Source: Patescibacteria group bacterium
GTDB lineage: Bacteria > Patescibacteriota > Patescibacteriia > UBA2591 > UBA6264
DNA length: 32,000 nt
Assembly (NCBI GenBank): GCA_028713575.1
Contig: JAQTOB010000004.1
Span: 38,393-70,392 of the forward strand
Direction: 5' to 3'
The notes below the pieces were generated by a model, which had not been told where the DNA came from, searched no databases, and saw only the letters and a program-made list of their open reading frames with translations. Of this stretch, positions 4,085-29,981 are shown piece after piece; the first letter of the stretch is position 1; every line of letters starts with the position of its first letter. The position numbers were made by a program, and so were the translations under genes.

Positions 4085-4092
4085 AGAGATAA

Positions 4093-4800
4093 TTAGATAA
4101 TTGGGGTCGGAGATAATTGGGGTCTGACCCCATGAGCATCCCTTCTGAGATAATTGGGGTCTGACCCCATGAGTATCCCTTCTAAAACATACATGATAAT
4201 TGGGGTCTGATAATTGGGGTCTGACCCCATGAGCATCCCTTCTAAAACATACATCAATAAAGGATTATAGAACGAAAATTTCAATTTGGCGCGATTTTGA
4301 TTGATTTCCAATAATTTTTTATCAAAACAACGATTTTTGACACTAATTTTGGGGTCTACACTAATTTTGGGGTCTGACCCCATGAGCATCCCCTCTAAAA
4401 CATACATCAATAAAGGATTATAGAACGAAAATTTCAATTTGGTGTGATTTTGATTGATTTCCAATCACTAATTTTGGGGTCTGACCCCATGAGCATCCCT
4501 TCTAAAACATACATCAATAAAGGATTATAGAACGAAAATTTCAATTTGGTGTGATTTTGATTGATTTCCAATAATTTTTTATTAAAACAACGATTTTAAT
4601 TGAAAATTGATAATTATTTAATTTACATTTAATCACTAATTTTGGGGTCTGACCCCATGAGTATCCCTTCTAAAACATACATCAATAAAGGATTATAGAA
4701 CGAAAATTTCAATTTGGTGCGATTTTGATTGATTTCCAATAATTTTTTAACAAAACAACGATTTTAATTGAAAATTGATAATTATTTAATTTACATTTTG
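4093..4800. repeat. Tandem or nested intergenic repeat array built around the palindrome GGGGTC-T-GACCCC
   Basis: Full palindrome copies lie at 4119-4131, 4156-4168, 4216-4228, 4369-4381, 4476-4488 and 4644-4656, with truncated copies at 4101-4110, 4202-4210 and 4351-4357. Long units of about 105-165 bp (cactaattttggggtctgaccccatgagcatcccttctaaaacatacatcaataaaggattatagaacgaaaatttcaatttggtgtgattttgattgatttccaat...) start near 4211, 4358, 4466 and 4634. The last unit runs directly into the pilC start. Confidence 0.9.
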
Positions 4801-4838
4801 CATTTTGATTTTTCAGTTTTGAATTTAGCGAAGCGCTT

Positions 4839-12487: not shown

Positions 12488-12652
12488 GAAAAAATGGGGG
12501 CTGGGTGCTCATAATTATAACGAAATTATTTCCCCAGCACATAATGGATTTTCTAAAAAAAGAATATCAATATTATTATGAAATTAAAATAAGATAATCA
12601 AAACTCAGCATAGCGCCATATATTTATGTGCTGGGTCATAATTTTGATAATT

Positions 12653-13909: not shown

Positions 13910-13910
13910 A

Positions 13911-13937
13911 AAAGTGATAAAAGTGATAAAAGTGATA
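13911..13937. repeat. Three tandem copies of AAAGTGATA just after the stop at 13909
   Basis: The sequence reads aaagtgata|aaagtgata|aaagtgata. A fourth AAGTGATA overlaps the -10 element at 14019-14030. Confidence 0.8.
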
Positions 13938-14021
13938 TGAAAAATTTACTTAAGAGCAAGACTTCTAAGTAGTTTTTTTGTAAAAAGTTTTTCACAGGAG
14001 GTTTTAAAAAATAAAAATAAG

Positions 14022-14030
14022 TGATATAAT
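14022..14030 (+). promoter_or_regulatory. Extended -10 promoter element (TGaTATAAT) upstream of the 1580-aa gene
   Basis: tgatataat at 14022-14030 is a perfect TATAAT with the TGn extension, about 80 nt upstream of the ATG at 14109. There is no clear -35. Confidence 0.4.
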
Positions 14031-14108
14031 ACAATCAAGATATATAAAAAAATAGCATTTTATAAAATGAGTCATTAAAGAGAAAAAATAAATTTAATTT
14101 AAAATTTT

Positions 14109-17100
14109 ATGAAAATCAAAAACAAAATTTTTAGGAGGGTGAAACAAAAAATCACAAAAATTATTTTTGTTTTTTTAATGGTCGCGACGATGACGGGGAG
14201 TTTAACTAACATTGCTCAAGCTTATTTATTAGACGCGGTTGATTTGTTAGGACAAATGGACACTTTAGACGAACCGATTTATACGCGAAGCACGCAAAAC
14301 AATCCTTATAGTACCATAGTCAGCAATGCGGTTTTCAACGGCGCGGAAGATGTGAAAATTGATACAGTTCATCACCGTTTATTCGTCGCCGACCGCAGTA
14401 ACAATAGGGTTTTAGTTTATGATTTGGACGAAAATAATCAATTTGAACATTATGCCGCTGATTATGTTTTGGGTCAGCCGGATTTTACCACGGTCAGCGC
14501 CGGCACCACGCAGAGCAAATTCAACGCTTCAAGATATATCGCCTATGATTCCAATCATCAGCGTTTGTTTGTTTCCGAAGAAGAAAATAAACGGGTAACG
14601 GTCTTTGATTTATCCGAAGGAGTTACCACTGGTATGGACGCTTCTTATGTTCTTGGTCAGCCGGATTTCACCACCAGCGACACTACCACCACTTTATTTG
14701 GTTTTGATTATTGTTGGGGACTGGCTTATGACTTAGATAATGATTATTTGTATGTGGCTGACGGATCTTCCCATAATCGTATTTTAATTTTTGATGTTGC
14801 CCCCGAAGAAATGTATAACTATAAACCGGCCTTTGCTCATTTGGGCTCTTTGATCGGCACTGCTTTGGACGATTCTCATTTTGAGGGTCCCCATGGCTTG
14901 GTTTTGGACAAGACCAATGATATTTTATATGCGACCGACACCGACCATCATAGAATAATGATTTTTGATACAGAAGAAATTATCAATGGAGAAAGCGCGA
15001 TTAATGTCCTTGGTCAATTAAATTTTACTTCAGATAGCACCAGCACTAGCAGCGTGGGTATGAATTACCCTTATAATGTTGATTTTGATGGAGTTGATGA
15101 GCGTTTATTTGTTGCTGACGCTACCAATCATCGCGTAATGGTTTTTGACGTTTCTGGGGGAGTGACAGATGGCATGGAAGCCTCTTATGTTTTGGGTCAG
15201 ATTGATTTTGACGCCAACAGTTCTGGCGCGACCCAATCTAAATTTAATAAGCCTCGCGGCGTGGCCTATAATTCCGTTACCAAAGAATTATATGTCGGCG
15301 ATTCAGGCAATAATCGGATAATGGTTTTTGATTTATCCCAAGGTATTACTAACGGCATGAACGCTTCCAAACTTTTAGGACATACCACGCGCGGCGGCGT
15401 GCCGAATTGGACTTTTACCACTGCCAATCAAATGGGAGCACCTATTGACGACATCGGTTTGCACACGCCCGATAAAGTCCATTTTGATTCTGTCGGGCAC
15501 CGTTTGTTCCAATCAGACCAGAACAATAGCCGTATCTTGGTTTATAATTTGGATGAAAATAATAATTTAATTGACCATGTTGCGGATTATGTGATTGGCA
15601 GAGATGATTTTTTTACCGGCGGCTCGGACAATACCGGTGGCGGTCAAGCCGCTTTTAAATGGCAACATAATTCAATTCTTGATTCCGGGCGTCAGCGTTT
15701 ATTCGTTTCTGATTCTTATAATAACCGGATTATGGTTTTTGACATTTCCGAAGGCATCGCCAACGGCATGAATGCGGCTTATGTTCTTGGTCAACCGGAT
15801 TTTACTTCTTATGATGCGATTACTACCATTAGTGGCGTTAACGGGCCTCGCGGTTTTGCTTTTGATTCAAGCACTGACCGTTTATTTGTTGCCGACCGCA
15901 ATAATCATCGGGTTTTGGTTTATGATGTGGCGGAAATTGAAACCGGCGAAGACGCAATCAATGTTTTGGGCCAGTCCGACTTCACTAGCAACTCCGCAAC
16001 CACTAGTATCAGTGGCATGGACTATCCTTATGATTTAGCTTTGGACCAAACCAATCAACGTTTATTTGTTATTGACAAGAACAACAACCGAGTGGTTGTT
16101 TATGATGTGGCGGAAATTACTAACGGCGAAGACGCGGTGGCGGTTCTGGGTCAAGCTGATTTTAATTCTAAAATTGATACCGTTGAAGATGTTGAACAAA
16201 GGATTCAAACCCAAGATAGATTATTTAACACCAGGGGAGTGGCTTATGATTCGGTTAATAATTGGTTATTTGTCGTGGAATACGCCGGTCATCGGGTAAT
16301 GGTATTTGATGTCACGGAAATTGAAAACGGCGAGCCGGCAATCAATGTTTTAGGAGACGAAACTTTTAATACGACTCTTTTGGAAACAATTGATGCCAAT
16401 GAAAATACGAATCGGGTCGCGACTGCCAGCAATTTTTGGACGCCCGAGACAGCGGAAATAGACGGAACCAATAGAAAATTATATGTTAGCGACCAAAATC
16501 ATAACCGGACCATGATTTTCCAATTGCCCAAAATTACGACTGCTTCATTAAGTAATGGCACTGTAGGCGAAGTTTATAGTCAAACAATTTCCGGTACTGG
16601 CGGCGCTGAGCCCTATGTTTGTTCTTTGGTCTCAGGCACTTTGCCCACTGGTTTATCCTTAAACGCTAATTGCACTATTACCGGCGCGCCATCAGCGGCC
16701 GGAACAGCCAATAATCTTGTTATTCGTTTTTCTGACAGTTCAATTACTTCGCCGGAAACAGTCGGCTTATGGCACAACAAAACTTTTAGTTTAACTGTTG
16801 ACGAGTCTTTGGCTAACATTAAAATTTCAGCCAAAGCCGAATTAACCGCGGCCTTGGCGACTTATAATCAGGAGGATTACACCGAAGAAAACTGGACAGG
16901 TCTAAATACTTATAAAACCGATGGCGACACAGCTATTGATGATGCCGAAGATACAGCCGGAGTTACAACAGCTAAAAATACGGCTATCAATGGAATGGCC
17001 GGAGTGGAAACCATTGCTCAAACACTTAAAACAATTACTGCTTTTTCTGTTCCTAATCAAGTTGGCGCGTCAACGATTAATCAAACCGACAAGACAATCA

Positions 17101-18851
17101 AATTAGTGGTTCCGTTTGGCACAGATGTTACTGACCTTGTGGCGTCTTTTACTACTACTGGCGCCTTGGTTAAAGTTAGCGGAGCAACACAAACCAGCGG
17201 TCAAACCGCTAATGATTTCACAAATTCTTTAATTTATACTGTTTCCGCCGTCAATGAGACAACACAGAATTATACGGTTAGTGTCACGGTCTTGACTAAT
17301 ACGCAAACCGCCATAGATGATGAGGGCGCTGTTACCATTGATAACAGCACGCCTCAGGCGGTTATTATTAATCCAACTCAGGCAGTCACTGTTGATATTG
17401 CCGAAGACACGGAAGGCCCGAGCATTGATGTTAGTTCATTTATTAGTGCCGGAACAGGAACCATTCCTCAAATTACTATTACAGCCGCGAACGCGAATAA
17501 TGTTAATGTAGCCATTCCCGCCTCCACCACTGTGACCAGTGCTGATTCGGCTTGGGATGGAGTAATTGCCGCGCCAGTCGTGACCACGGTCACTTTGCCC
17601 AATACTTCAGGAGAAATGAAAACATTAAGCACAGCCATTGAAGTCGGATTCTCCGGTGCCAAATTATCTTTTGATAAGGCGGTTAGGCTATTATTGCCGA
17701 ACCAAGCGGGGAAAAGAGTAGGTTACATTAGAACAGGAATTGATTTTACGGAAATAACTTCGGTTTGTGACGCAGACAGCCAAGCGGTTGGCGACCTCTT
17801 GTCCGCTGACGGTGAATGTAAAAAAGATGTGGGCAATGATTTAGTTGTCTGGACAAAACATTTTACTTCCTTTGCCACTTTTAGCGCGGTTCCTTTGTCT
17901 AGTGGCGGAGGAGGCGGCAGCGCTCCTGTTTTAGTGGGCCCCTCTGATTTAAGTTTAAAAATAAATAATGATGCATTGGAAACTTTTTCAAGAAATGTTG
18001 TTTTAAATATTAATGCCGCTAATGCCACGGAAATGTTAGTCGGCGATACTGTTGATTTTGCCAATGTTGATTGGGAAGAGTATGCGAGTTTGAAAAATTG
18101 GACCTTAACTTCTGGCAATGGAGAAAAAATAATTTATATTAAATTTAGAGACAGCAGTCACAATGAATCTTCTGTAGTTTCCGACACGATTATATTAGAA
18201 GAAGAAATAGTTGCGGTTGGCGAGGGAAGCTTGGTTAAAACTGCTGATTCTACTGCTTTGTATTTGATTCTTAATGCCAAGCGTCATGTTTTTCCGCACT
18301 TGGCCGTTTATCATTCCTGGTCTTATCCAAATGATTTTTCCACTGTTAAAACAATTACTACTGTTGAATTAAATCAATATCCGGAAGGCGATGCCGTTCC
18401 TTTCCGCGACGGCTCAATGTTCAGGGGCACGACCCAATCCTTGTATGGTAAATCCGCTTCTGCTGTTTTTTATGTAGAAGACGGGAAATTAAGAGCAGTT
18501 AAATCAGGAGAAATTTATCAGACACTTTTTAATGACCCGAATTGGTCATTAGTCACTTGGGTTCCGGACGACTTGTTGGCCAAGTTTAATTATGAATTGT
18601 CTAATGATTTAGATTCGTCAGATATCCATCCCAATGGTTCTTTGGTTAAATACCCTGATGCTCCTGCGGTTTACCTGATTAAAAATGGCAAAAAGCAACC
18701 CTTTTCTTCTTGGGACATTTTCGTCGCTAACGGTTATAGTCAAAGGAAGATTTTTGTCATTTCGGCTGAAGAGACCTATGAAACAGCAGAAATAATCAGC
18801 AGTTTAGCCGAATCCCTGACTACGCCAGTCATTGCTGCGATGTATCAATAG
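14109..18851 (+). CDS. Giant secreted surface protein: 12 NHL-type blades, Ig-like domains and a C-terminal 'VY..G.KR' repeat module
   Basis: 1580 aa with a signal or anchor segment (ITKIIFVFLMVATMTGSLTNIAQA). There are 12 occurrences of the NHL-like strand motif [NH][NHKS]R[VIT][LMTV][VI][FY][DNQ], such as NNRVLVYD and NHRVMVFD, interleaved with YVLGQPDFTS-type motifs. Further elements are a He_PIG-like Ig domain (GTVGEVYSQTISGTGGAEPY...LPTGLSL), further beta-sandwich domains, a GGGGG linker and a C-terminal module shared with the gene at 22036. Confidence 0.9.
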   Translation: MKIKNKIFRRVKQKITKIIFVFLMVATMTGSLTNIAQAYLLDAVDLLGQMDTLDEPIYTRSTQNNPYSTIVSNAVFNGAEDVKIDTVHHRLFVADRSNNRVLVYDLDENNQFEHYAADYVLGQPDFTTVSAGTTQSKFNASRYIAYDSNHQRLFVSEEENKRVTVFDLSEGVTTGMDASYVLGQPDFTTSDTTTTLFGFDYCWGLAYDLDNDYLYVADGSSHNRILIFDVAPEEMYNYKPAFAHLGSLIGTALDDSHFEGPHGLVLDKTNDILYATDTDHHRIMIFDTEEIINGESAINVLGQLNFTSDSTSTSSVGMNYPYNVDFDGVDERLFVADATNHRVMVFDVSGGVTDGMEASYVLGQIDFDANSSGATQSKFNKPRGVAYNSVTKELYVGDSGNNRIMVFDLSQGITNGMNASKLLGHTTRGGVPNWTFTTANQMGAPIDDIGLHTPDKVHFDSVGHRLFQSDQNNSRILVYNLDENNNLIDHVADYVIGRDDFFTGGSDNTGGGQAAFKWQHNSILDSGRQRLFVSDSYNNRIMVFDISEGIANGMNAAYVLGQPDFTSYDAITTISGVNGPRGFAFDSSTDRLFVADRNNHRVLVYDVAEIETGEDAINVLGQSDFTSNSATTSISGMDYPYDLALDQTNQRLFVIDKNNNRVVVYDVAEITNGEDAVAVLGQADFNSKIDTVEDVEQRIQTQDRLFNTRGVAYDSVNNWLFVVEYAGHRVMVFDVTEIENGEPAINVLGDETFNTTLLETIDANENTNRVATASNFWTPETAEIDGTNRKLYVSDQNHNRTMIFQLPKITTASLSNGTVGEVYSQTISGTGGAEPYVCSLVSGTLPTGLSLNANCTITGAPSAAGTANNLVIRFSDSSITSPETVGLWHNKTFSLTVDESLANIKISAKAELTAALATYNQEDYTEENWTGLNTYKTDGDTAIDDAEDTAGVTTAKNTAINGMAGVETIAQTLKTITAFSVPNQVGASTINQTDKTIKLVVPFGTDVTDLVASFTTTGALVKVSGATQTSGQTANDFTNSLIYTVSAVNETTQNYTVSVTVLTNTQTAIDDEGAVTIDNSTPQAVIINPTQAVTVDIAEDTEGPSIDVSSFISAGTGTIPQITITAANANNVNVAIPASTTVTSADSAWDGVIAAPVVTTVTLPNTSGEMKTLSTAIEVGFSGAKLSFDKAVRLLLPNQAGKRVGYIRTGIDFTEITSVCDADSQAVGDLLSADGECKKDVGNDLVVWTKHFTSFATFSAVPLSSGGGGGSAPVLVGPSDLSLKINNDALETFSRNVVLNINAANATEMLVGDTVDFANVDWEEYASLKNWTLTSGNGEKIIYIKFRDSSHNESSVVSDTIILEEEIVAVGEGSLVKTADSTALYLILNAKRHVFPHLAVYHSWSYPNDFSTVKTITTVELNQYPEGDAVPFRDGSMFRGTTQSLYGKSASAVFYVEDGKLRAVKSGEIYQTLFNDPNWSLVTWVPDDLLAKFNYELSNDLDSSDIHPNGSLVKYPDAPAVYLIKNGKKQPFSSWDIFVANGYSQRKIFVISAEETYETAEIISSLAESLTTPVIAAMYQ

Positions 18852-18880
18852 AATTAAGCCGAAATTCGGTTTAAATAAAG

Positions 18881-19454
18881 AAAAGTCCTCCTATTTTTGA
18901 GGGGGTCTTTTCTTTGTTTTGAGACTCGGTTTCCCGTTGGAAACCGAGTCTCTTCACTTCTTGGTTGTTTTGAGACTCGGTTTCCCGTTGGAAACCGAGT
19001 CTCTTCACTTCTTGGCTTCCTGTTTAAAGTTCGGTTTCCCGCTTTGCTTCGTAGCGAGCTTTGCTCTGCTACTGGGGCTGGAAGCCGAACTTCTTTATTT
19101 TATAAAAAGCCACTTGGTCTTTAAAGTCCTCCTATTTTTGAGGGGGTCTTTTCTTTGTTTTGAGACTCGGTTTCCCGTTGGAAACCGAGTCTCTTCACTT
19201 CTTGGCTTTGATACTTTGGCGCAATCCCTGATTATGCCGGCTATGGCCGATTTAGCGCAATAAAGCTTCTATTATATATACACTTTGTTTTGAGACTCGG
19301 TTTCCCGTTGGAAACCGAGTCTCTTCACTTCTTGGCTTCCTGTTTAAAGTTCGGTTTCCCGCTTTGCTTCGTAGCGAGCTTTGCTCTGCTACTGGGGCTG
19401 GAAGCCGAACTTCTTTATTTTATAAAAAGCCACTTGGTCTTTAAAGCCTTTTTT
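18881..19454. repeat. Composite intergenic repeat island with a 32-nt perfect palindrome (x4) and a duplicated ~170-bp segment
   Basis: GAGACTCGGTTTCC-cgtt-GGAAACCGAGTCTC lies at 18921-18952, 18972-19003, 19162-19193 and 19292-19323. The segment at about 18963-19134 is repeated at about 19283-19454 (offset 320 bp). It contains a long hairpin, gttcggtttcc...ggaagccgaac, at 19027-19092 and 19347-19412, followed by a T-rich tract. The element aaagtcctcctatttttgagggggtcttttc occurs at 18882 and 19123. Confidence 0.9.
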
Positions 19455-19546
19455 ATAGGGAGGTTTGACCCCTTCCTCTTGTTATAAATATTATAAATGT
19501 TATAATAATTTTCTACTATTTTCGTAAAATTTTCGTATTTCGTAGC

Positions 19547-20077
19547 ATGTTCCACCTCAGAGAGAAAATCCTTTTTCATCAAATTAAAAACGGTGACGAA
19601 CAGGCCTTCACCGTCTTTTATAATACCTATAAAGACAGAATTTATCGTTTTATTTATTTTAAAGTTTCTGATCGTGAAAAAGTTTATGATTTGGTTTCCG
19701 AAGTTTTTATTAAAATATATGATTATATTAAAGAGGGGAATGACATTGATAATTTTCAAGCTTTTTTGTATAAAATCGCTCGTAATTTAGTAATAGATTT
19801 TTATCGCACTAAAAAAGAGGAAATTTCTTTAACTGATGCGCCGGAAACAGTTTCTCCTATCAATTTAGAAAAAGAAGTGGGAGATAAGGTTGCCGTGGAA
19901 AACGTCAAAAGATACCTTAATAAAATTAAACCAGAATACCGCGAAGCGGTTCATCTTCATTTTTTTGAAAATTTTTCTTTTTCCGAGATTGCGGATATTA
20001 TCAATCAATCCGAAGGCAATGTTAGGATTAGGGTTTATCGCGGCATTAAGCAATTAAAAGAGGTTTTAAGGGGTTGA
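19547..20077 (+). CDS. ECF-type (sigma-70 family, group 4) RNA polymerase sigma factor
   Basis: 176 aa. Region 2 is AFTVFYNTYKDRIYRFIYFKV...FQAFLYKIARNLVIDFYR. Region 4 HTH is YREAVHLHFFENFSFSEIADIINQSEGNVRIRVYRGIKQLKE. Confidence 0.9.
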   Translation: MFHLREKILFHQIKNGDEQAFTVFYNTYKDRIYRFIYFKVSDREKVYDLVSEVFIKIYDYIKEGNDIDNFQAFLYKIARNLVIDFYRTKKEEISLTDAPETVSPINLEKEVGDKVAVENVKRYLNKIKPEYREAVHLHFFENFSFSEIADIINQSEGNVRIRVYRGIKQLKEVLRG

Positions 20078-20595
20078 ACCCCTTCTATATGTAGGGGTTC
20101 AACCCCCTCCCCAATAATCGCCATCATAAACTTTTTACACAGGAACTTTTTACACATTTTTACACAGGACATTTTTACACAGGTTGAACCTGTGTAAATT
20201 TTCATTTGCATATTTCACAAAACAAATCCAAAATCCAAAACCCAAATTTTCATAATCACTTGGGAACCGAGTTTCTAAAAAGCAAGAAAGCAAGAGATGG
20301 ATTCTACGCTAGAAACTCGGTTTCCCGTTGGAAACCGAGTTTCCTTCTCCCCAATAATCGCCATCATAAACTTTTTACACAGGAACTTTTTACACATTTT
20401 TATACAGCACATTTTTACACAGCACATTTTTATACATTTTTACACAGGTTGAACCTGTGTAAATTTTCATTTGCATATTTCACAAAACAAATCCAAAATC
20501 CAAAACCCAAATTTTCATAATCACTTGGGAACCGAGTTCCTAAAAAGACATTTTTACACAGGTTGAACCTGTGTAAATTTTCATTTGGCATTTAG
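20068..20595. repeat. Composite intergenic repeat island with GGGGTT-G-AACCCC and TACACAGGTT-G-AACCTGTGTA palindromes and TTTTTACACA reiterations
   Basis: aaggggttgaacccctt (20068-20084) contains the sigma stop codon, and its inverse aggggttcaacccct lies at about 20093-20107. A block of about 175-200 bp (ctccccaataatcgccatcataaac...cacttgggaaccgagtt.ctaaaaag) occurs at about 20107-20282 and about 20346-20547, with a third partial copy at 20548-20595. A variant of the 18921-type palindrome lies at 20312-20343. Confidence 0.9.
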
Positions 20596-20631
20596 TCATT
20601 TGATATTGATTTGACATTTGACATTGGAAAT

Positions 20632-20661
20632 TTGACATTTCACGTTTTAATGGTGTATAAT
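20632..20661 (+). promoter_or_regulatory. Near-consensus sigma70-type promoter upstream of the gene at 20725
   Basis: TTGACA (20632-20637), an 18-nt spacer, then TATAAT (20656-20661). Two additional TTGACA copies lie at 20611 and 20618 within an ATTTGACAT reiteration. Confidence 0.5.
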
Positions 20662-20724
20662 TTTTCCCCTTTCTTCGTCTTATTATTTGTCATTTAGCCA
20701 TCAAATAGTTAAATCTCAATTTCA

Positions 20725-21702
20725 ATGAAATTTAAAAATTTGACCCGACAATATAATTCAATAAAATTGGATACTGTTTCTGAAGATAAAATTCGGGAAC
20801 GGGTTTTTGATTATTTTCAACAAACTCGTCCTGCTACGCCAACAATGAGTTATCATTTTAGTTTGTTTCTTAAACCGGCTTTAATAAGTTTGCTGGTTTT
20901 GTTTTTTATTTTTACAACTGGTTTTGGAACAATAGCCGTGGCGAAAAAATCCTTGCCCGGTGATTTTTTATATTCTCTTAAAAGAGTTGTGGAAAAAAGT
21001 CAAATGTTTTTGGCTTTTAGTTCTTCGCAAAAAGTCGTTTTACGCGCGGAAATTTTAAATAATCGTTTTGATGAAGCCAAGGTTTTGGTTAAGAAAATGG
21101 AAACAGGAGACAAGGAGTCAGAATCAGATTTTAATATCTTGGCCGCGAATTTTAATCAGGAATTAAAAATTTTAAAAGAAGAAATTGGAGAACAAATTTT
21201 AGTAGAGGATGGGCCTTTTCCGGCTGAGGACTTATTAAACACCGAATTATTGGACCAGGGTTCATTGCCGATTCAAGACCAACGCCAGATGTTTACTGTT
21301 TTGCCCAATGAAGACATTGAAAGACTCTTGACTGAAACCAGAGAATTGCTGGCTGAAAAAAATATGGCTTTGGCCCTAGCTCGGATTGAGCAAGTAGAAA
21401 AAATAGTCAGCGGTGAAGAAAAAGTAGAACCCCAAGAGGCAGAATCTCAGGAAATAGAACTTCAAGAAATTCAGGAAAATGAAAAGAGGATTTTAGAATC
21501 AACAGAAGAAAATTTTCAATTTCCAGCTCTTCAACCGGCGGAACAATCTCCGAATTCCGAATTGCTTGAAACCCAATCCTTGAATTCCCAATTACCCAAT
21601 TTAGGTTCAACAGGAAATCTTTCAAAAGAAAAACAAGATGATTTTAAAGTTAAAATAGAAAAGGATTCTTCAGCGCAAACCAGTATGATTCGGGAAGAGT
21701 AG
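20725..21702 (+). CDS. Single-pass membrane protein with a DUF5667-like extracytoplasmic domain; candidate anti-sigma or sigma-associated partner
   Basis: 325 aa. A short cytoplasmic N-terminus is followed by a TM helix (ALISLLVLFFIFTTGFGTIAV), then LPGDFLYSLKRVVEKSQMFL, which matches my recollection of the DUF5667 signature. The tail is acidic and E/Q-rich. The gene follows the ECF sigma gene, and no HxxxCxxC zinc motif is present. Confidence 0.65.
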   Translation: MKFKNLTRQYNSIKLDTVSEDKIRERVFDYFQQTRPATPTMSYHFSLFLKPALISLLVLFFIFTTGFGTIAVAKKSLPGDFLYSLKRVVEKSQMFLAFSSSQKVVLRAEILNNRFDEAKVLVKKMETGDKESESDFNILAANFNQELKILKEEIGEQILVEDGPFPAEDLLNTELLDQGSLPIQDQRQMFTVLPNEDIERLLTETRELLAEKNMALALARIEQVEKIVSGEEKVEPQEAESQEIELQEIQENEKRILESTEENFQFPALQPAEQSPNSELLETQSLNSQLPNLGSTGNLSKEKQDDFKVKIEKDSSAQTSMIREE

Positions 21703-22035
21703 TTTTTTAAAAAAGTATTCGCAATATTTAGATAAATTCGTAATTTAGAATTATTTAACTAACTAACCATTAATATAATTTTCCCCCTTGGTGAAAGTTG
21801 ATTCTCTGTCGATAGTCAGCGATTAGCTAATCCTTCGCGGGAATTAAAGGTCGAGCTCAATTTTGAGAAATTTTCGGACATCGGGATATCCCCCGAGAGT
21901 TTCAAGAAAAGAGCGGGGTAAAAATAATAAATATACGAATAATCATGAATTATAAAACAAAATACCAATCGCGAATTCGTGATTAGTTAAAATTCGTTCA
22001 AAATTCGTGAAAATTCGTAATAATTAGAGGATTAA

Positions 22036-25000
22036 ATGAATAAACTTAAAAAATTGATTGCTTTGGGAACAACCGTTTCAATGCTTTTGAGTTTAGTAGT
22101 GGTGATGCCTGCTCGAGCCGTGACCATCGCCGATGGCGATTTGGTTATGACCACCAGCAGCTCTGCTGTTTACTATATTCAAGGAGCGTATAAACGCGTT
22201 TTTCCTCATTATAATGTCTATCTTTCTTGGGGCTATCCTTCTGATTTTTCTACCGTTAAAACGGTCAGCACTTCGGAATTAGCCTCTTATACCGACGCCA
22301 ATCCAATGCCGTTCCGCGACGGAGCGCTCTTCCGCGGCACTGCTGCCAGTTTAGGCGATAAAGATGCAACTGCTGTTTTTTATGTTGAAAACGCTCAGCT
22401 TCGCCCTGTTTTATCAGAGCAAGTTTATCAAGCGTTATTCAAAGATACAGACTGGGCAAAAGTTACTTGGGTTCCTGATGATTTATTGAGCAAATTCAAT
22501 TATGAAATGGGCTCAAATCTTTCTTCATCTTCAACCCATCCTGATGGCAGTTTGGTCAAGTATTCTAACTCAGACCAAATTTATGTCATTGAAAGCGGAA
22601 AAAAGAGAGCGATTTCTGCTACGGCTTTTGATGCCAACCGCTATAGTGTCGCCAATGTCATTACCATTGACTCAAGCGAAACTTATGCTAACGGTTCGGC
22701 TGTCACTGGCGTTGAATCCAGCTTATTAACACCAGGTTGGCTTGGAACCACTGTTGCTTCCGGTGCTTTGACCGCGAGTTTATATAACCCTCCGGCTGGC
22801 GCCACTATTCCGAACAAAGCTACTAATGTTTCTCTTTTAAAAGTTAAATTAACCGCGGGTAATACCGCTGCCACTATTAGTGGTTTGACTTTTAAGAGGA
22901 GTGATTTGGGCGCAACCACTGATTGGGACACCCTTTATGTTTATGAAGGGAATGATTGTATTACTCCCAATGGCCGTAGCTTAAGTTCGGACGACCATAC
23001 TGTTGAATTCGCGGTAAACATTAGCGTTCCTGCTAATGGTTATAAAGTTCTTGAATTGCGCGGTGATTTGAAAGCCGGTGGCGCGACCGCCAACAACCGC
23101 CATGCTTTCCAAATAACTGAGGTAGCAACTTCAGCCACGGTTAGCGGCTTGCCTTTAACTGGCAATGTGATGATTGTCGGCTCGGTCAATGTAACCACTG
23201 CTATTATCAGCGCCGGCACCCTTCCGATCAATCCTTCGGTCGGTGCTCAGGACGCCGAAATCGCCAACTTTAAGATTCAGGCCGGCGATAACGACATTAC
23301 TTTCAGCCAGATCGTCTTCACCTTTGCTGGCACTATGTCCAGAGGCGATATCACTAATCTTAATCTTTATTTGCTTGGTGAAACCGAATCTTTGGCGAGT
23401 GTTTCCGGTATCGCTTCCAACGACACCTTCACTTTGACTCTTGATTCTCCCTATGTCATTACTAAAGGACAGACCAAAAATTTTGTGTTAAGAGCTGATT
23501 TGACTGGTGAAGTCGGACGAACTTTGGAGATGTATATGGAAGAAACCTATCATTTGGCGGTTAGCGACAACGAATATAATTTCGGCGCCGCTGTCACCAA
23601 TAGTTTTGGCAACGCCGATGTGACTGCGTTAACTTTACAGGGTGGTGAAATCACCATGGCTGATAACGGTCCTTTGGCAGGAAATGTTGCGCAAAACCAA
23701 CAGGATGTGGTTTTAACCAAAATTGCTATTACTGCTGACCGGAGCATTGAAGTCCGCAAGTTATTTGTTACCTTGGCCAGTGATGTGGCGGGTGCTGCTA
23801 ACCCGACTGACGGAGTCAGCGACTTAAGAATTAAAGATGAAGATACTGGTCAAACTTTGATGACTCCGACTTCTGCAGTCGGCACCACCATCTCCGGTAA
23901 TTATCTGATGACTGGAACCTTTAATTTAACCGCCAATACTACCCGTAATTTAGTTATTACGGTTGACATTGGTGTTGATGCGGGTGATGCCCTTGACGGC
24001 AAATATGTTTCAGCCGACTTAAAAATGGTTGACCGCAGCGACGATTCAGTGGCGGACAACAGTAGCGGTGAAGAAGCGCAGATGCGTGATTCTTCCACTG
24101 GCGACTGGATTTTAACCGCTGATATTATTCCGATTAGCGTTTCTGGCGAACACCAGACTATCCAAACCCCGGCTTTGACCACGGCTGTGGCTTCAACTCC
24201 GGTTTCCGGCTTGACTTCCATTAAGGGTGCGTCAAAAGTTGATGGTATTGGCATTGTCTTTACCGCCGGTGATGCTTCTGCTGTTTCTTTACGGCAGTTC
24301 TCAGTCAGAGCTTATGTCAACAGCGCCGCTACTTTCTTGGCGACCAATGAAGACACTTCTCCGACTGGCGAAGTCACCACGGTCTACTTGTATGATGACT
24401 CCGGAACTTTATTGGCTTCTAAAACATTAAGTGCCACTTCCGCGAATCATGATTATGGCGCGGCTACTTTCAGTGGTCTTACTGTTACCATTCCGGCTGG
24501 TGAAAACAAGAAATTAACGGTTAAATTTGATGTCAATTCAACTTTAGAGGCGGCTAGATATGTTGCCTTTGGTATTGACGACGCGAGCATTACTGCTTAT
24601 GACAGCGAAGGTTCAACCGTGGATGTCACGGGCGACCTGAATTTCTACGCCAGCGACCTCAGCGTTCCGACTCACTACACTTATCTTGACACCGGTGGCG
24701 CTTTAACCATGGCGCAGGATCCGTCAACGCCTGATTCAGATATTGTTTTGGCGGGCGCGACTGACGTGATTATGTCCAAGATTAAATTCACCGCTACCAA
24801 AGAAGATTGGACGGTCAGTAAGTTGAGAGTTGAAATGGCTACTTCAGCCAATGAGAGCAGCGTCTCTAAAGTCAAGATTTCTTATCCGGGCGGTAGCGCC
24901 ACGGGCACTTTGTCCGGCGGTTTTGCTAAATTCACTGGCCTTAACTGGCTAATTGAAAAAGACACCGAAGAAATTTTGACCATCAGCGTTGATTTGGCGG

Positions 25001-25785
25001 ATATCAATCAGGATATCGCCACCACTGGTCGCGACTTGAAGGTCGGCCTTGATTGTTCCGATGCTGACGACGATTGTGAAGCCATCGGCACCTCTTCAAC
25101 CGTTTTGGGCGATGCTGACAGTGAGTTAAGCGATGTGGACGGCAACTCAATGTATTTGAGAAAGTCTCGTCCGACCGTTGCTGCTGCTTCTTTACCATCA
25201 AGTCAATTAATTAATGGAACCAGAGTCATTAACAAGTTCACTGTTACAGCTGATGCTGCGGGTGCCATCACCCTTAAGAAATTCAGTTGGGACGTTAATG
25301 TGAGCGACTACAATACTGACGGTTTATCTGTCACTAATTGGAGAGTTTATGACACTGGTAATTCAACCGCTTTGGCTGGTCATTGGTCAAACGCTACAAC
25401 CACCAGCACTTCTGGCGCGATTGCCGTTACCAACGGAGCCAAGGTTATGATTGTTGAACTTGATGACGAAATCGAAATTGCTGCCGGCACTAGCAAAACA
25501 TTTGAGTTAAAAGCAGATGTTTCTAGCGCTGCCATTTACGATTCAGTCAGCTCAAGCTTACTCAACGATGATAACGACACAGCGGTTAGAACCGGCGGTT
25601 TAGCCGACCATGATACCCAAGGTGTCCAACTTGAAGGCAGTGTTGCCGTTGATTTCCTCTGGTCTGATAAGGCCCGGGGTGCCAACCACACTGATTCATA
25701 CCAGACAACCTATGATGACTGGACCAATGGTTACTTGATTGACGTGTTGCCGACCGAAACTGTCTCATTGATCTATCCTAGCTAA
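22036..25785 (+). CDS. Giant secreted surface (S-layer or adhesin-like) protein: N-terminal 'VY..G.KR' repeat module plus reiterated beta-sandwich modules
   Basis: 1249 aa with an SD (agagga) and a signal peptide (ALGTTVSMLLSLVVVMPARA). Residues of about 30-230 are homologous to the C-terminus of the 14109 protein. After that come about 8 divergent modules of roughly 110-130 aa sharing a pattern such as ...V.L.K.K.TA....V....F.... The composition is rich in T/S/A/G/D. Confidence 0.9.
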   Translation: MNKLKKLIALGTTVSMLLSLVVVMPARAVTIADGDLVMTTSSSAVYYIQGAYKRVFPHYNVYLSWGYPSDFSTVKTVSTSELASYTDANPMPFRDGALFRGTAASLGDKDATAVFYVENAQLRPVLSEQVYQALFKDTDWAKVTWVPDDLLSKFNYEMGSNLSSSSTHPDGSLVKYSNSDQIYVIESGKKRAISATAFDANRYSVANVITIDSSETYANGSAVTGVESSLLTPGWLGTTVASGALTASLYNPPAGATIPNKATNVSLLKVKLTAGNTAATISGLTFKRSDLGATTDWDTLYVYEGNDCITPNGRSLSSDDHTVEFAVNISVPANGYKVLELRGDLKAGGATANNRHAFQITEVATSATVSGLPLTGNVMIVGSVNVTTAIISAGTLPINPSVGAQDAEIANFKIQAGDNDITFSQIVFTFAGTMSRGDITNLNLYLLGETESLASVSGIASNDTFTLTLDSPYVITKGQTKNFVLRADLTGEVGRTLEMYMEETYHLAVSDNEYNFGAAVTNSFGNADVTALTLQGGEITMADNGPLAGNVAQNQQDVVLTKIAITADRSIEVRKLFVTLASDVAGAANPTDGVSDLRIKDEDTGQTLMTPTSAVGTTISGNYLMTGTFNLTANTTRNLVITVDIGVDAGDALDGKYVSADLKMVDRSDDSVADNSSGEEAQMRDSSTGDWILTADIIPISVSGEHQTIQTPALTTAVASTPVSGLTSIKGASKVDGIGIVFTAGDASAVSLRQFSVRAYVNSAATFLATNEDTSPTGEVTTVYLYDDSGTLLASKTLSATSANHDYGAATFSGLTVTIPAGENKKLTVKFDVNSTLEAARYVAFGIDDASITAYDSEGSTVDVTGDLNFYASDLSVPTHYTYLDTGGALTMAQDPSTPDSDIVLAGATDVIMSKIKFTATKEDWTVSKLRVEMATSANESSVSKVKISYPGGSATGTLSGGFAKFTGLNWLIEKDTEEILTISVDLADINQDIATTGRDLKVGLDCSDADDDCEAIGTSSTVLGDADSELSDVDGNSMYLRKSRPTVAAASLPSSQLINGTRVINKFTVTADAAGAITLKKFSWDVNVSDYNTDGLSVTNWRVYDTGNSTALAGHWSNATTTSTSGAIAVTNGAKVMIVELDDEIEIAAGTSKTFELKADVSSAAIYDSVSSSLLNDDNDTAVRTGGLADHDTQGVQLEGSVAVDFLWSDKARGANHTDSYQTTYDDWTNGYLIDVLPTETVSLIYPS

Positions 25786-25788
25786 ATT

Positions 25789-26150
25789 CTTTGGAGACCA
25801 GGTCTCCAAAGATAGATATAACGTTTGACTGAAGCGCGTGTCCGCCTCTGGTGGACTAAAATCAGTCCATCTGGAATAATATAATAAAAATATTAGTTCC
25901 ATCGCCAAAATCCCCTTAACAGGGGATTTTGGCTTTTAAAAGGGCGCAATACCTGCCTATCGGCAGGTTTTGGAGACCAGGTCTCCAAAAAAAGTCTCCA
26001 AAAAAATCTTGCGAGGTTTTTTAGTTTTAGAGACCAGTTTTTTGGAGACCTGGTCTCCAAAAAACCCTGCGAGGCCTTTTAGGGATTGTTTTTTTTAAAT
26101 TAAAATATTATAATAATTGGAGACCTAATTTGGAGACCTGGTCTCCAAAT
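25789..26150. repeat. Cluster of REP-like palindromes TTGGAGACC-W-GGTCTCCAA with half-sites
   Basis: Full palindromes lie at 25789-25811, 25968-25990, 26038-26064 and 26128-26150. Half-sites lie at 25994-26006, 26025-26037 and 26117-26125. A co-repeated CTGCGAGG motif lies at 26009 and 26067. Confidence 0.9.
25904..25937 (+). terminator. Rho-independent terminator downstream of the 1249-aa gene
   Basis: A perfect 13-bp stem GCCAAAATCCCCT-taac-AGGGGATTTTGGC is followed by TTTT. Confidence 0.7.
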
Positions 26151-26174
26151 TACTCCAAATTAAAAAATAGCCTT

Positions 26175-26885
26175 ATGAGAAAAATTAAATTTGTTAATGA
26201 TGAGTATTATCATATTTATAACCGTGGAGTAGATAAACGGATTATTTTTGAGGATAAAGATGATTTAAAAAGATTTTTCCAAAGTATGAAAGAGTTTAAT
26301 GTTTTAGAGCCAATAGGTAGCATTTATGAAGCGGTTCGTTGTAAAACTTTTAGAGAAACTTTTGGAGACCAAGTCTCCAAAAGTTTTACAAATAATGAAA
26401 GATTGGTTGATTTTATTTGTTACAATTTACTTCCCAATCATTATCATTTCATTTTAAAACAGTCAGTTGAAGATGGAATTAAGAAATTTATGCATAGACT
26501 CGGATTGGGTTACGCAATGTTTTTCAATCAAAAGTATAAGCGCAACGGTTCATTGTTCCAAGGACCGTTTAAGGCGATTCATATTGATTCCGAAGCTTAT
26601 TTGCTTCACTTGAGCGCTTATATTAATTTGAATCATAGGGTTCATTCTAAATTTGAGGATTTTGGAGACCTTGAGGATTTTGGAGACCTGGTCTCCAAAA
26701 GATATAAATCAAGCTGGGAGGAATATTTGGGATTAAATCAAGAAAAATTTTGTCAAAAGGAAATTCTTTTAGACCAATTTGACACAATAAAAAGCTATAG
26801 AGAGTTTGCCGAAGAATCATTAAAAGGAATAAGAGAAAGAAAGGAAATAAAAAAGTTTCTTTTAGATGATCAAATAATTGGTTGA
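26175..26885 (+). CDS. Y1/HUH tyrosine transposase of the IS200-like / REP-associated (RAYT) type
   Basis: It carries YHIYNRGVDKRIIF..., an HUH motif in LPNHYHFILKQ, GSLFQGPFKAIHI, and a catalytic-Tyr helix LSAYINLNH. The ATG at 26175 is preferred over the TTG at 26130, which lies inside a palindrome. The CDS contains in-frame copies of the flanking palindrome. Confidence 0.8.
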   Translation: MRKIKFVNDEYYHIYNRGVDKRIIFEDKDDLKRFFQSMKEFNVLEPIGSIYEAVRCKTFRETFGDQVSKSFTNNERLVDFICYNLLPNHYHFILKQSVEDGIKKFMHRLGLGYAMFFNQKYKRNGSLFQGPFKAIHIDSEAYLLHLSAYINLNHRVHSKFEDFGDLEDFGDLVSKRYKSSWEEYLGLNQEKFCQKEILLDQFDTIKSYREFAEESLKGIRERKEIKKFLLDDQIIG

Positions 26886-26921
26886 TTGACAAACGGTTAA
26901 TTTTCTGATAAAATTTGGCAT

Positions 26922-28343
26922 ATGAAGATTAAAATTATTGCCATTTTTATTTTTGTAATTTTGCTGTTTCCGGGCAAGTTATTTGCTTCTGCCGCGCCGA
27001 TTGAAGAAAAATACTGGTGTGGCAATTTTGTTTCTTCTGGTTCTTGCGACCGTGAGCGAAGCAATGTTGACTGGGAAAATAAAACTATGGTTTTAAATAA
27101 AAGAGACGACAATACTTATTCATCTTCCAGTATTTGTTGGACCAATGAAATAAGGTTTGGAAAACATATTCACTCCATTACGAATTTAAGTGGCGTCTAT
27201 TCTTCGCCCGGCGGGACAAGCGTTAAAGCTTTTTTTCGTTTTGGCGATGCGGAAGAAGAATATCTTTTAAACTGGGGAGGAATTTATGAACCCAAAGAGG
27301 CGTTTAAAAGTTTTCGCCTGAAAATATTTCTTGCTTCAAATAATTCTGCCGTTTCTCCCAATGTTTCTCAGATTTGTTTTAAAGTAAGATTGCAAGACCG
27401 CTCAATTGAAGGAATTAAAAGTCGGGACAGAACGAGGGTTTCTAATTTGGAAAAGACTAAAAATGTTTTAAAAAAATATTATGAAGATTTTAATCAATAT
27501 CCTGTTGTTGATATTCAGCCAACCGAGAAACAGCGTCAATGGGATTTATTAAAAAATACTTTATCTTCTGCTTCTTTTAATCATTACGAAAATTATACTC
27601 GTGGTTTTATTGATCAGCCCGAAAATGTTAGTGAGGATTATCAATATGGTTATTTAACCAGTTCTCTTGGTCTGTATTATCTTCTTTGGACAAAATTGGA
27701 AGATATTAATTCCGAGCGTTTTGAAAATTCTTGGACCGGAGAAATTTTAAACGTGGATTGTTCTCCGCCGATTTATTGCATTTATTCTCGGGCCGATGCC
27801 GACCCAGAGGTCTTGTTAAAAGAATTTAATAATAAACAAAAAAAGGAAAATATTGAGGATGCGGAATTTATTAGAACGCCGGACGATTCCAAGGTTTGGC
27901 TAAAGACAAAAAATCGCCGCGTTTGGCTAAGAACCCCGGAGATTTTTAATCAAGCTAATGGGAACTGGGATAAAATAACAATAAAAAACACCCTGGCAGA
28001 TGTTCCTTTATTAAAATTCATTAAATTTAAAGACAAAGAAGAGATATATTTAGTTAGCGAGAAAGGGTTTAAAAGGCACATGTCTAACAGTCAAATCCTT
28101 AATTTTTATGGGCAAATTTCAGAAATTGTTGTTTTTGATAATGAAAAAATTATTAATCTTTTACCCGAAAACCGTTTAATCAAAGGCAAGGGACTGTCAG
28201 AAGTCTATTTTCTTGACCAAAAAATAAAAAGATGGATTACTTCTCCTGAGGTTTTCGCAAAAATGGGATTTGATTGGAATGAAGTAGTAGAAGTGGACCC
28301 CCGGGAATTAGATTATTATCCGGAAGCAACCCCGATGTTTTAG
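26922..28343 (+). CDS. Secreted protein with an internal pilin-like (GspG-fold-like) segment and C-terminal 'VY..G.KR'-type repeats
   Basis: 473 aa with a signal peptide (IIAIFIFVILLFPGKLFASA). SRDRTRVSNLEKTKNVLKKYYEDFNQYPV...DYQYGYLTSSLGLYYLLWTKLED resembles the conserved post-helix core of CPR pilin or pseudopilin proteins. The C-terminus has three approximately 50-aa repeats (KVWLKTKNRRVWL.., EIYLVSEKGFKRHM.., EVYFLDQKIKRWI..). Confidence 0.75.
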   Translation: MKIKIIAIFIFVILLFPGKLFASAAPIEEKYWCGNFVSSGSCDRERSNVDWENKTMVLNKRDDNTYSSSSICWTNEIRFGKHIHSITNLSGVYSSPGGTSVKAFFRFGDAEEEYLLNWGGIYEPKEAFKSFRLKIFLASNNSAVSPNVSQICFKVRLQDRSIEGIKSRDRTRVSNLEKTKNVLKKYYEDFNQYPVVDIQPTEKQRQWDLLKNTLSSASFNHYENYTRGFIDQPENVSEDYQYGYLTSSLGLYYLLWTKLEDINSERFENSWTGEILNVDCSPPIYCIYSRADADPEVLLKEFNNKQKKENIEDAEFIRTPDDSKVWLKTKNRRVWLRTPEIFNQANGNWDKITIKNTLADVPLLKFIKFKDKEEIYLVSEKGFKRHMSNSQILNFYGQISEIVVFDNEKIINLLPENRLIKGKGLSEVYFLDQKIKRWITSPEVFAKMGFDWNEVVEVDPRELDYYPEATPMF

Positions 28344-28416
28344 TTAAAATATTTTATTAGATGGAATTTTTTAATTTCAAAATAATAAAATAACTAATTA
28401 AGTTTAATAAAAAAAT

Positions 28417-28703
28417 ATGATTGAGGAAAAAACTTTTTTAAATCAACAAAATCAAAAACAAGAAAAAAACAAAATCGGACAAAAGAAGAGGCCCAACAAG
28501 AATTAATTGAAAAGTTTGGATTAAGAAAAACCTCTGATTTTCAATTAGCCTTGCAACAAGGTAAAATTGAATTGGCCGAAGCATGGCTGGATTACATTGT
28601 GGGGAATAAAGAAAATTTTCCTCAATATAAAGCTACCTGGGACAGTTGGTTGGAAGATCGCCGAAGAGAATTATTAGATGCTAAAAATTTAAATAAGACA
28701 TAA
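28417..28703 (+). pseudogene. Small ORF split by a frameshift in an A-rich tract (hypothetical)
   Basis: The ATG at 28417 opens a 29-codon frame ending at TAA 28504-28506. A second frame is open from 28425 to TAA 28701-28703 (...EEAQQELIEKFGLRKTSDFQLALQQGKIELAEAWLDYIVGNKENFPQYKATWDSWLEDRRRELLDAKNLNKT*) but lacks its own ATG. The frames overlap across caagaaaaaaacaaaatcgg. Confidence 0.3.
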
Positions 28704-28918
28704 AAGGAAGCTATCCCTGTGGAAAACTTTTTTGACAAAAAAGAAATATAAACTATTATGAATTAAAATAATAGAAAGTAGAAAAAAATAAATGGAGAGG
28801 CGTAGGAGTAAACAAAAATTTATTTTTTTAAAAAAGTTAATAAATTTTATCAGCTAATTTTAAGTACCCTTAATTGGTATTTTTTTTGTTTATAAAAATA
28901 TGTTAATTTACTGGATTC

Positions 28919-28957
<39 letters not shown>

Positions 28958-29036
28958 TTTTTCGGCGATTTTTTAATTTCTATAGATACTGTTTTTAGAC
29001 AGTATTTTTATTATAATTAAAAATTCTAAAAAATTT

Positions 29037-29945
29037 ATGAAAAAAATATTAAAAATTTTATTAATAGTCTTTTTTTGTTTTGTCGTCGCTTATGGAATAA
29101 GAATTTTTTACGGTTTATGGATTTTGCGCCATGTTTCTTCAGGCGACCAGCTTAAAATAGCGCGATCAGCCTATGAAAGTTGCCTTGCTCGAGGGGAAGA
29201 AAATTGCGAATCTTATTTAAACAGGGGAATAAAAATGTCTTTAGAAACTCAAAAGAAAGAATTGATGGATAGAATGTTGGATGAAAATAATTTAACAGAA
29301 GACAGATTATTGGCCTTGGATATGTTTTATAGATACTGCCGCAATGAGGATGAATTCTTGGGTTGGGAAGAGGCCGAACTTTATTTTTCCATTACTAATA
29401 ATAAGGAAGAGTCAGGAGAATTGCGCAGCGAGGCGGCCAAATATCTATTACAGACAAAAACCAAAGACGAAACAGTTAGTAAATTGCAAAAAGAGGCCTT
29501 AGAAGGAACAGAAACGAGCATTGAGTATAAAAGAGCGGCCCTTCAGGGCGTGGCCGGCTTAGAAGATGACGAAGCGATAGACGCTTTAATAAAAGCGCTA
29601 AAAGACGAAACAGGAGAAATTAGTGTTAAAGCGCACAGCGCTTTAATTGCGATGGGATTAAAAATAGAACAAAGAATTCCTCAATTTTTAGAAATTAGCA
29701 TTGATGAAAGCGAATCCCTTTTAGCCAGAAATAATGCCCTTGATATAATTAGTTCTTTGGCCAAAAATTATGGAATAAAAAATCAAGAAGCGATTGAAAA
29801 ATTAAAATCCTTAATAAAACACCCTCATTACGTTATTCGTTCTTCAGCCGCTGAAGCCCTTAAAGCAATGACCGGCAAAGAATATGAAATTGAACCAGGA
29901 ACCCAAGAAGAAGAGGAGGAGCTTTTAGACGCTATTCTTTTTTAA
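29037..29945 (+). CDS. Membrane-anchored HEAT-repeat protein
   Basis: 302 aa with an N-terminal TM helix (ILKILLIVFFCFVVAYGIRIFYGLWIL). HEAT/PBS-lyase-like repeats are present (AALQGVAGLEDDEAIDALIKALKDETGEISVKAHSALIAMG; HPHYVIRSSAAEALKAMTG). Confidence 0.75.
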   Translation: MKKILKILLIVFFCFVVAYGIRIFYGLWILRHVSSGDQLKIARSAYESCLARGEENCESYLNRGIKMSLETQKKELMDRMLDENNLTEDRLLALDMFYRYCRNEDEFLGWEEAELYFSITNNKEESGELRSEAAKYLLQTKTKDETVSKLQKEALEGTETSIEYKRAALQGVAGLEDDEAIDALIKALKDETGEISVKAHSALIAMGLKIEQRIPQFLEISIDESESLLARNNALDIISSLAKNYGIKNQEAIEKLKSLIKHPHYVIRSSAAEALKAMTGKEYEIEPGTQEEEEELLDAILF

Positions 29946-29981
29946 AATTAGAATAAAAAATATTTTTTTAATGTTATTGCT

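Follow-up and report, generated by a model that had tools for sequence, protein, structure and literature searches.

The window analysed here is a stretch of 32,000 nucleotides (contig C4:38393-70392) from the 692-kb genome of a Patescibacteria group bacterium, which is assembled in 24 contigs, 99.5% complete and has a G+C content of ~34%. Three secreted proteins encoded in this window, P0001, P0002 and P0003, share a short repeat that forms a triple module in each of them (Table 1). In P0001 the module occupies the C-terminus, behind NHL-repeat β-propellers (Pfam NHL, E 1.1e-39) and immunoglobulin (Ig)-like domains. In P0002, a candidate surface-layer protein with weak fn3-like signals (Pfam) outside the module, it directly follows the signal peptide. 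P0003 carries its repeats at the C-terminus, and no family match was found for its N-terminal 290 amino acids (aa).

The original prediction, made from the DNA letters without database searches, had delimited the module correctly: window positions 18225-18848 encode P0001 aa 1373-1580, 22120-22740 encode P0002 aa 29-235, and the P0003 repeats occupy aa 313-473 (27858-28340). The first two regions had been described as colinear and about half identical, which BLASTP bore out with 103 of 201 identical residues (51%), a single gap and an E-value of 1e-74. In a second high-scoring pair the third repeat of one module was aligned to the first of the other (29%, E 5e-4), which demonstrates the internal repetition of the module. 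The two giants were also rightly called unrelated apart from a module usable at either terminus, as no similarity was detected between the remaining 1372 residues of P0001 and 1014 residues of P0002 (best E 8.3). Each module consists of three repeats of ~55-70 aa. To avoid circularity, these were located with an independent hidden Markov model (HMM) built from 140 repeats of other organisms only, which recovered the expected three copies in each of P0001, P0002 and P0003, including those claimed for the C-terminus of P0003. The middle repeats are weak copies, and repeat 2 of P0003 is marginal when taken alone (E 0.017). The 'VY..G.KR' motif proposed for the module matches the family consensus, xGxLxKxxxxxxVYxIxxGxKRxIxSxxxFxxxGxxWxxV....ELxxYxxG.

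Table 1. Repeat carriers, their repeats and two neighbouring genes. Positions refer to the window unless a contig is given.
Feature	Position	Strand	Evidence and remarks
P0001, 1580-aa secreted giant	14109..18851	+	Open reading frame list, translation; signal peptide MKIKNKIFRRVKQKITKIIFVFLMVATMTGSLTNIAQA
P0001 repeat 1 (aa 1372-1432)	18222..18404	+	HMM envelope; independent HMM E 2.7e-13
P0001 repeat 2 (aa 1434-1503), atypical, ~12-aa insertion	18408..18617	+	Independent HMM E 1.2e-4
P0001 repeat 3 (aa 1509-1565)	18633..18803	+	Independent HMM E 1.6e-15
ECF (extracytoplasmic function) sigma factor, between both giant genes	19547..20077	+	Pfam Sigma70_r2, Sigma70_r4_2, Sigma70_ECF
DUF5667 protein, putative anti-sigma or membrane partner	20725..21702	+	Pfam DUF5667 E 2.8e-10; synteny with relative
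P0002, 1249-aa secreted, Thr/Ser/Ala-rich Ig-like-repeat protein	22036..25785	+	Signal peptide MNKLKKLIALGTTVSMLLSLVVVMPARA, then N-terminal triple module
P0002 repeat 1 (aa 33-93)	22132..22314	+	Independent HMM E 3e-16
P0002 repeat 2 (aa 95-164), atypical, with insertion	22318..22527	+	Independent HMM E 2.5e-5; AlphaFold2 model
P0002 repeat 3 (aa 170-225)	22543..22710	+	Independent HMM E 6.8e-14; AlphaFold2 model
P0003, 473-aa secreted	26922..28343	+	Signal peptide MKIKIIAIFIFVILLFPGKLFA; three C-terminal repeats
P0003 repeat 1 (aa 313-363)	27858..28010	+	Independent HMM E 9e-6
P0003 repeat 2 (aa 365-413), weakest copy	28014..28160	+	Independent HMM E 0.017; missed at E<=0.001 genome-wide
P0003 repeat 3 (aa 417-473), near family consensus	28170..28340	+	Independent HMM E 1.2e-20; six-frame search E 2.1e-21
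C2 protein, 493 aa, 4 copies	contig C2:91931-93412	+	Repeat HMM
C5 protein, 707 aa, 2 near-consensus copies	contig C5:39133-41256	-	Repeat HMM

That the module is shared by three secreted proteins was confirmed, but the count of three fell short: a first HMM, built from the nine window repeats, found two further carriers in the genome, on contigs C2 and C5. In a six-frame search of the whole genome, 14 copies were obtained at E<=0.001, all of them within the five carrier frames (14-15 copies in total). When the carriers were surveyed for export signals, 5/5 had either a signal peptide or a transmembrane anchor, with the transmembrane helix ahead of the repeats. The C5 protein crosses the membrane once; its cytoplasmic head is long, acidic and of low complexity, and the protein also has a PsbP_2-like domain (E 4e-6) and C-terminal repeats. 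The repeat is thus also borne by a protein that is fixed in the membrane.

The fold of the triple module was predicted with AlphaFold2 from an alignment of 30 triple modules, giving a predicted local distance difference test (pLDDT) of 92.5 and a predicted template-modelling score (pTM) of 0.86. Each repeat folds in the model as strand-strand-strand-helix-strand, often followed by a short helix; in P0002 repeat 1 the strands lie at 8-11, 18-21 and 24-27, the helix at 31-36 and the last strand at 46-49. The C2 protein was modelled with a pLDDT of 92.8 and contains four such β-β-β-α-β units. When the window triple module was compared with the PDB using Foldseek, the top match was EccB5 in the ESX-5 complex (7nps_B1; E 7e-6, probability 1.00). 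The 11 best matches were all EccB proteins (EccB5, EccB1 and EccB3; E 7e-6 to 1.6e-3), and the next match followed at E 0.55. For the C2 protein the 11 best matches were likewise all EccB, headed by 3x3n (E 1.1e-7, probability 1.00). Global template-modelling scores (TM-scores) against EccB reached only 0.13-0.26, owing to an arrangement of the repeats that differs from that in EccB. A two-repeat actinophage protein (Rhodococcus phage Weasels2) superposed with a TM-score of 0.79, a root-mean-square deviation of 2.9 Å and an E-value of 3e-7.

By sequence searches alone, the module would have seemed to lack relatives. Nothing significant was found when the modules were compared with Pfam (E<=10) and NCBIfam, or when a single module and the profiles A1, A2 and A4 were compared with the PDB sequences, and neither Pfam nor NCBIfam has a model for the repeat. 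A core motif, Y-[YL]-I-x-x-G-x-[KR]-x-x-[IV]-P, is common to the repeat and EccB, and high-GC members of the repeat family match the EccB models themselves. PF05108 was matched by P0140 (E 8.8e-17; 61.4 bits against a cut-off of 27), P0078 (E 4.2e-10) and P0208 (E 1.7e-7), at profile positions ~180-249, and TIGR03919 by family members down to E 2.6e-19. Judged from the residue ranges in PMC4769845, these positions correspond to EccB repeat R2. The intermediates themselves consist of CHAP and 6 repeats (P0140), 17 repeats (P0078) and SpoIID and 8 repeats (P0208). The fold models and the intermediate sequences thus indicate that the repeat is related to the EccB repeat domains R1-R4 but free-standing. 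The module had been called uncharacterised in the original prediction, which needs correcting: in fold it corresponds to the EccB repeat domains, and relatives of it pass both PF05108 and TIGR03919.

Crystal and cryo-electron microscopy structures are available for the EccB repeats (PF05108, TIGR03919; PDB 4KK7, 3X3M/N, 5CYU, 6SGY and 7NPS), and those of EccB1 have been described as α/β units (PMC4769845). Like R1-R4, the repeats found here are α/β units of ~50-60 aa, with a four-stranded sheet and helices, located outside the membrane. EccB itself has one N-terminal transmembrane helix and a central β-sheet core, and its repeats, exactly four in number, are packed into a pseudo-twofold body; it is encoded with EccC/EccD and works inside the type VII secretion system (T7SS), as a core component of mycobacterial ESX secretion. 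In contrast, the carriers described here are unrelated exoproteins without the core domain, and their repeats form free tandem arrays (2-15 copies) at one end or the other. They are therefore not EccB proteins: there is neither a core domain nor a T7SS, and the repeats sit on NHL, Ig-like and GH73-like proteins instead. PF05108 found no match in the whole genome even at E<=1, and the genome has no EccB and no T7SS. A known small fold that had so far been seen only inside EccB serves a very large, uncatalogued family as a modular tag in tandem copies.

The size of this family became evident from a profile search of 1.84 billion representatives, which returned 10,226 clusters (at 50% identity) at E<=0.001 and 4,497 at E<=1e-10. 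Among sampled genomes of Patescibacteria the repeat was present in 85 of 301 (28%), including 16/16 of the same class or order. It was also present in 20 of 201 sampled genomes (~10%) of the Actinobacteriota phylum, a sample centred on the phylum of two metagenome-assembled genomes. Both figures speak against the suggestion that the module is a device of this lineage. The taxonomy outside Patescibacteria is based on this phylum sampling and on amino-acid composition, the latter being clearly of the high-GC type in 16 of the best 150 carriers. A related-locus search with one high-GC carrier, P0123, retrieved only its amidase domain, in Thermoleophilia and Acidimicrobiales, and no repeat was found in those two genomes, which served as the centre of the phylum sampling.

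Within the family, triple modules form a sub-family of their own, marked by a middle repeat that is atypical and extended. The homologues recovered stand directly behind the signal peptide in 70 of 71 cases, in P0002-like or other proteins, and the remaining one, P0055 (1915 aa), has a C-terminal module as in P0001. The module of P0001 is nearest to this C-terminal module of another organism (61%, compared with 51% to P0002), which rules out a recent module swap within the genome and makes the two window modules old paralogues. Among 150 carriers, the array is C-terminal in 100 and near the N-terminus in 20. Carriers have a median of 4 copies (range 2-15). Generic copies are poorly conserved (20-40% identity) and no residue is invariant across the family; a set of polar or aromatic positions (G2, K6, Y14, G19, K21-R22, S26, F30, G34, W37 and Y51) is kept across two phyla.

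To see which proteins bear the repeat, we made a census of Pfam-type domains in 132 carriers, comprising 84 shorter ones and 48 of 870-1300 aa. Domains acting on peptidoglycan were prominent: SpoIID in 27 carriers, Amidase_2 in 26, Glucosaminidase and M23 in 3 each, and CHAP in 1. Secreted S8 proteases were found in 10 carriers and cohesin domains in 6, along with CAP, nuclease and chitosanase domains. The shorter carriers contributed Peptidase_S8 (8), cohesin (5), Amidase_2 (4), SpoIID (4), M23 (2), CHAP (1) and Glucosaminidase (1), and the longer ones SpoIID (23) and Amidase_2 (22). An example of the combined architecture is P0069, with Amidase_2, ~9 repeats and SpoIID. The most conserved carrier is the C2 family, with proteins of ~450-490 aa and four copies, which is found across Patescibacteria. 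Its N-terminal domain matched no Pfam or NCBIfam model but was modelled as lysozyme-like, and Foldseek related it to GH73 LytB (probability 0.99) and AtlE (0.94), as well as to lytic transglycosylases and g-type lysozyme (probability range 0.85-0.99). The family keeps an invariant Glu in the motif 'LLQ[RK]E', and judging from the model this domain looks like an uncatalogued family of peptidoglycan glycosidases.

Carriers from other organisms also appear to be exported. A hydrophobic N-terminal 13-mer was found in 116 of the best 150 other carriers (77%) versus 157 of 400 control open reading frames (39%), the controls being those of at least 200 aa from this genome and the measure a crude hydropathy test rather than SignalP; many of the remaining 34 carriers are visibly truncated. 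The genome encodes peptidoglycan synthesis, with Mur ligases and three penicillin-binding proteins. No sortase was found in the genome and no SLH domain in the three window proteins or the whole genome, although control genomes do match SLH. LysM is confined to one unrelated protein on contig C3.

The repeat had originally been likened to SLH- or CWB2-type anchoring domains. Membership of these families can be discarded, because scans of the modules against Pfam at E<=10 returned nothing relevant for SLH (PF00395), CWB2 (PF04122) or LysM (PF01476); PASTA was likewise excluded, as no PASTA-containing structure was among the Foldseek matches. What holds of the comparison is the tag-like modularity, the export and the association with hydrolases. 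Like SLH, CWB2, LysM, SH3b and GW, the repeats are short, occur in tandem and stand at either terminus of secreted enzymes or S-layer proteins that are otherwise unrelated. They have no sequence or fold relation to any of these, and the analogy is functional only. Among the literature on wall binding in bacteria of the candidate phyla radiation (CPR), no specific named repeat was found.

The domain partners, the position of the repeats, the export of the carriers and the genome context all fit a general non-covalent tag for wall retention and targeting. Accordingly, we propose, with a probability of roughly 60%, that the module is a multivalent, non-covalent cell-wall-binding tag. Carriers would be exported via Sec, and their tandem copies would then attach to the peptidoglycan layer or to a polymer linked to it. 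In this way P0001 with its NHL propellers, P0002 as a surface-layer-like protein, and P0003 would be held on the cell's own wall. In other carriers, such as the GH73-like C2 glycosidase or the amidase/SpoIID enzymes elsewhere, the copies would keep the wall hydrolase at its substrate.

Several observations weigh against this proposal. In about two thirds of the carriers no wall-active domain can be recognised. The isoelectric points of the modules lie in the acidic to neutral range, at 4.3-6.8 (median 5.6, 709 repeats), whereas many charge-driven wall-binding modules are basic; wall binding, if real, would therefore be specific rather than charge-driven. The link to EccB runs through the predicted fold and the intermediate sequences, as the window copies match neither PF05108 nor TIGR03919 directly. 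The best PDB sequence match of the repeat profile A4 is EccB1 at an E-value of only ~0.8-1.1, with 'VYliengkkrpIpsaevFlslgy' aligned to EccB1 'YYIDpQGVRYGVPNAETAKSLGL' (E ~1 only). The repeats of EccB form part of a protein assembly, and those described here may by analogy serve protein-protein contacts.

Phage proteins bear on the proposal in two ways. In its favour, the EccB1 repeats were reported to be similar to PlyCB, a phage protein that binds the cell wall, and binding to peptidoglycan was proposed in the same study (PMC4769845). Against it, for the repeats described here, Foldseek matches to wall-binding domains of phage lysins were weak (probability 0.04-0.35), at E 0.55 for 6ist (probability 0.35) and E 5.0 for 7d55, and lactococcal phage lysins gave E 0.7-2.9. 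PlyCB itself was absent from the top 50 matches. The repeat has no sequence similarity to PlyCB or the endolysin wall-binding domains (PlyC 4F87/4F88, LysIME-EF1 6IST, Lys170 7D55), and these phage domains gain multivalency through oligomerisation into rings or tetramers, whereas the repeat family does so through tandem copies in one chain.

The genes around the carriers provide further context. Every gene of the window region is on the + strand. The order begins with T2SSE, a second ATPase and T2SSF, of the type IV pilus or type II secretion system type, followed by a major facilitator superfamily transporter, a PDZ protein and P0001. After P0001 come the ECF sigma factor, the DUF5667 protein, P0002, an IS200-like Y1 transposase reading frame and P0003, and then a HEAT-repeat protein and a large LTD-domain protein. 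The secretion genes upstream of the module genes lie at window 1106-6050 (T2SSE ATPase, E 3e-124; second PilT-like ATPase; T2SSF), so that most of the window is an island of cell-surface genes.

A relative keeps the block PDZ - ECF sigma - DUF5667 - P0002 homologue - P0003 homologue - HEAT - LTD giant (locus L010, 2844-19085), which corresponds to window 12626-32000, with homologues of ~1250 aa and ~475 aa for P0002 and P0003, respectively. The position of the ECF sigma gene upstream of the P0002 homologue is thus kept. Both proteins belong to conserved families: the P0002 family of Patescibacteria, of ~1250 aa, has the module directly behind the signal peptide, and members of the P0003 family (~475 aa) adjoin or lie near a P0002 homologue in relatives, a few genes farther away in a second relative. 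The conserved PDZ-to-LTD block suggests a surface-coat locus controlled by the sigma factor. L010 lacks P0001, and its PDZ gene is immediately followed by the ECF sigma gene (L010 2844-4852, compared with window 13909-19547). Since these two genes are adjacent in the relative, P0001 looks like a lineage-specific insertion between them in this genome.

At the C-terminus of P0002 (window 25650-25782), the motif W-S/N-D ... DW-x-N/S-G-Y-L ... LP ... L/F-S/T-R is kept in family members of distant genomes, and this conservation may mark a sorting or assembly signal. The Y1 transposase reading frame (window 26130-26885; Pfam Y1_Tnp, E 8e-6) directly follows the P0002 gene, and a similar one follows a P0002 homologue in another genome (L012 916-1587); its position therefore seems conserved rather than random. 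G+C is 0.40-0.47 in both giant genes (window 14001-18000 and 22001-26000) versus 0.31-0.38 elsewhere in the window, which could be due to their Ala/Gly/Thr-rich amino-acid composition or to foreign origin.

Instead of binding the wall, the repeats might be protein-protein assembly modules, through which P0002 would form a lattice or P0001 and P0003 would dock on P0002. EccB repeats make up the periplasmic portion of the ESX machine in this manner. The nearest structures are EccB chains in the assembled ESX-5 periplasmic complex (7nps, 7np7), and the EccB1 repeats pack together via hydrophobic helices (PMC4769845). The prediction of the triple module as a single rigid unit (pTM 0.86), the cohesin domains in six carriers and the neighbouring P0002 and P0003 homologues in relatives, as would suit partners, point the same way. 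Such a role would nevertheless leave unexplained why the commonest partners in two phyla are peptidoglycan amidases, SpoIID and glycosidases, and why copy number varies from 2 to 15 as in an avidity tag. Moreover, the genome lacks both EccB and a T7SS. We consider assembly without wall binding unlikely.

A second alternative keeps glycan binding but directs it outwards: the repeats would bind the surface glycan of another cell, as adhesins or as targeting units that bring the hydrolases and the NHL giant to host peptidoglycan or another polysaccharide. Patescibacteria are often episymbionts, and a tiny genome such as this one is typical of episymbiotic CPR bacteria. As the repeat occurs on wall hydrolases of the Actinobacteriota phylum and in actinophage proteins such as that of Rhodococcus phage Weasels2, it could recognise a wall of the Gram-positive type, and the proteases, nuclease and chitosanase among its partners look like enzymes for attack or foraging. 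However, P0002-type modules stand right behind the signal peptide in a conserved, sigma-linked block, which looks like that of a housekeeping coat protein, and the C5 protein bears the repeat despite being anchored in its own membrane already. Binding to a foreign surface is accordingly a doubtful explanation of the family.

The notion of a generic small fold without common function, reused as a structural spacer in secreted proteins, draws on the low identity between copies and the absence of a family-wide invariant residue, and is very improbable given the polar and aromatic positions (G2 to Y51) conserved across two phyla, the terminal placement in 120 of 150 carriers and the non-random tie to wall hydrolases, which spacers do not show.

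A broader scheme would combine wall binding with an outward direction. Here the repeat would be a peptidoglycan-recognition unit of Patescibacteria, Actinobacteriota and actinophages, aimed in episymbiotic CPR bacteria at the host wall, where it would dock P0001 and the coat protein, and the same activity would explain the periplasmic domain of EccB as fixing the ESX machine in peptidoglycan. Taken as a whole, we regard this scheme as speculative and improbable.

Patescibacteria account for a large part of bacterial diversity, and to our knowledge no mechanism is known by which proteins are kept on their envelope. The repeat family, with over 10,000 clusters, no database model and an association with wall hydrolases in two phyla, offers a concrete candidate for such retention, and the repeat would make a useful new annotation model. 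EccB is an essential part of mycobacterial type VII secretion, with a periplasmic domain whose role is unexplained, and the repeat family gives a testable handle on this domain. If its free-standing relatives do bind peptidoglycan, this would lend real support to the idea that EccB anchors the ESX machine in the wall.

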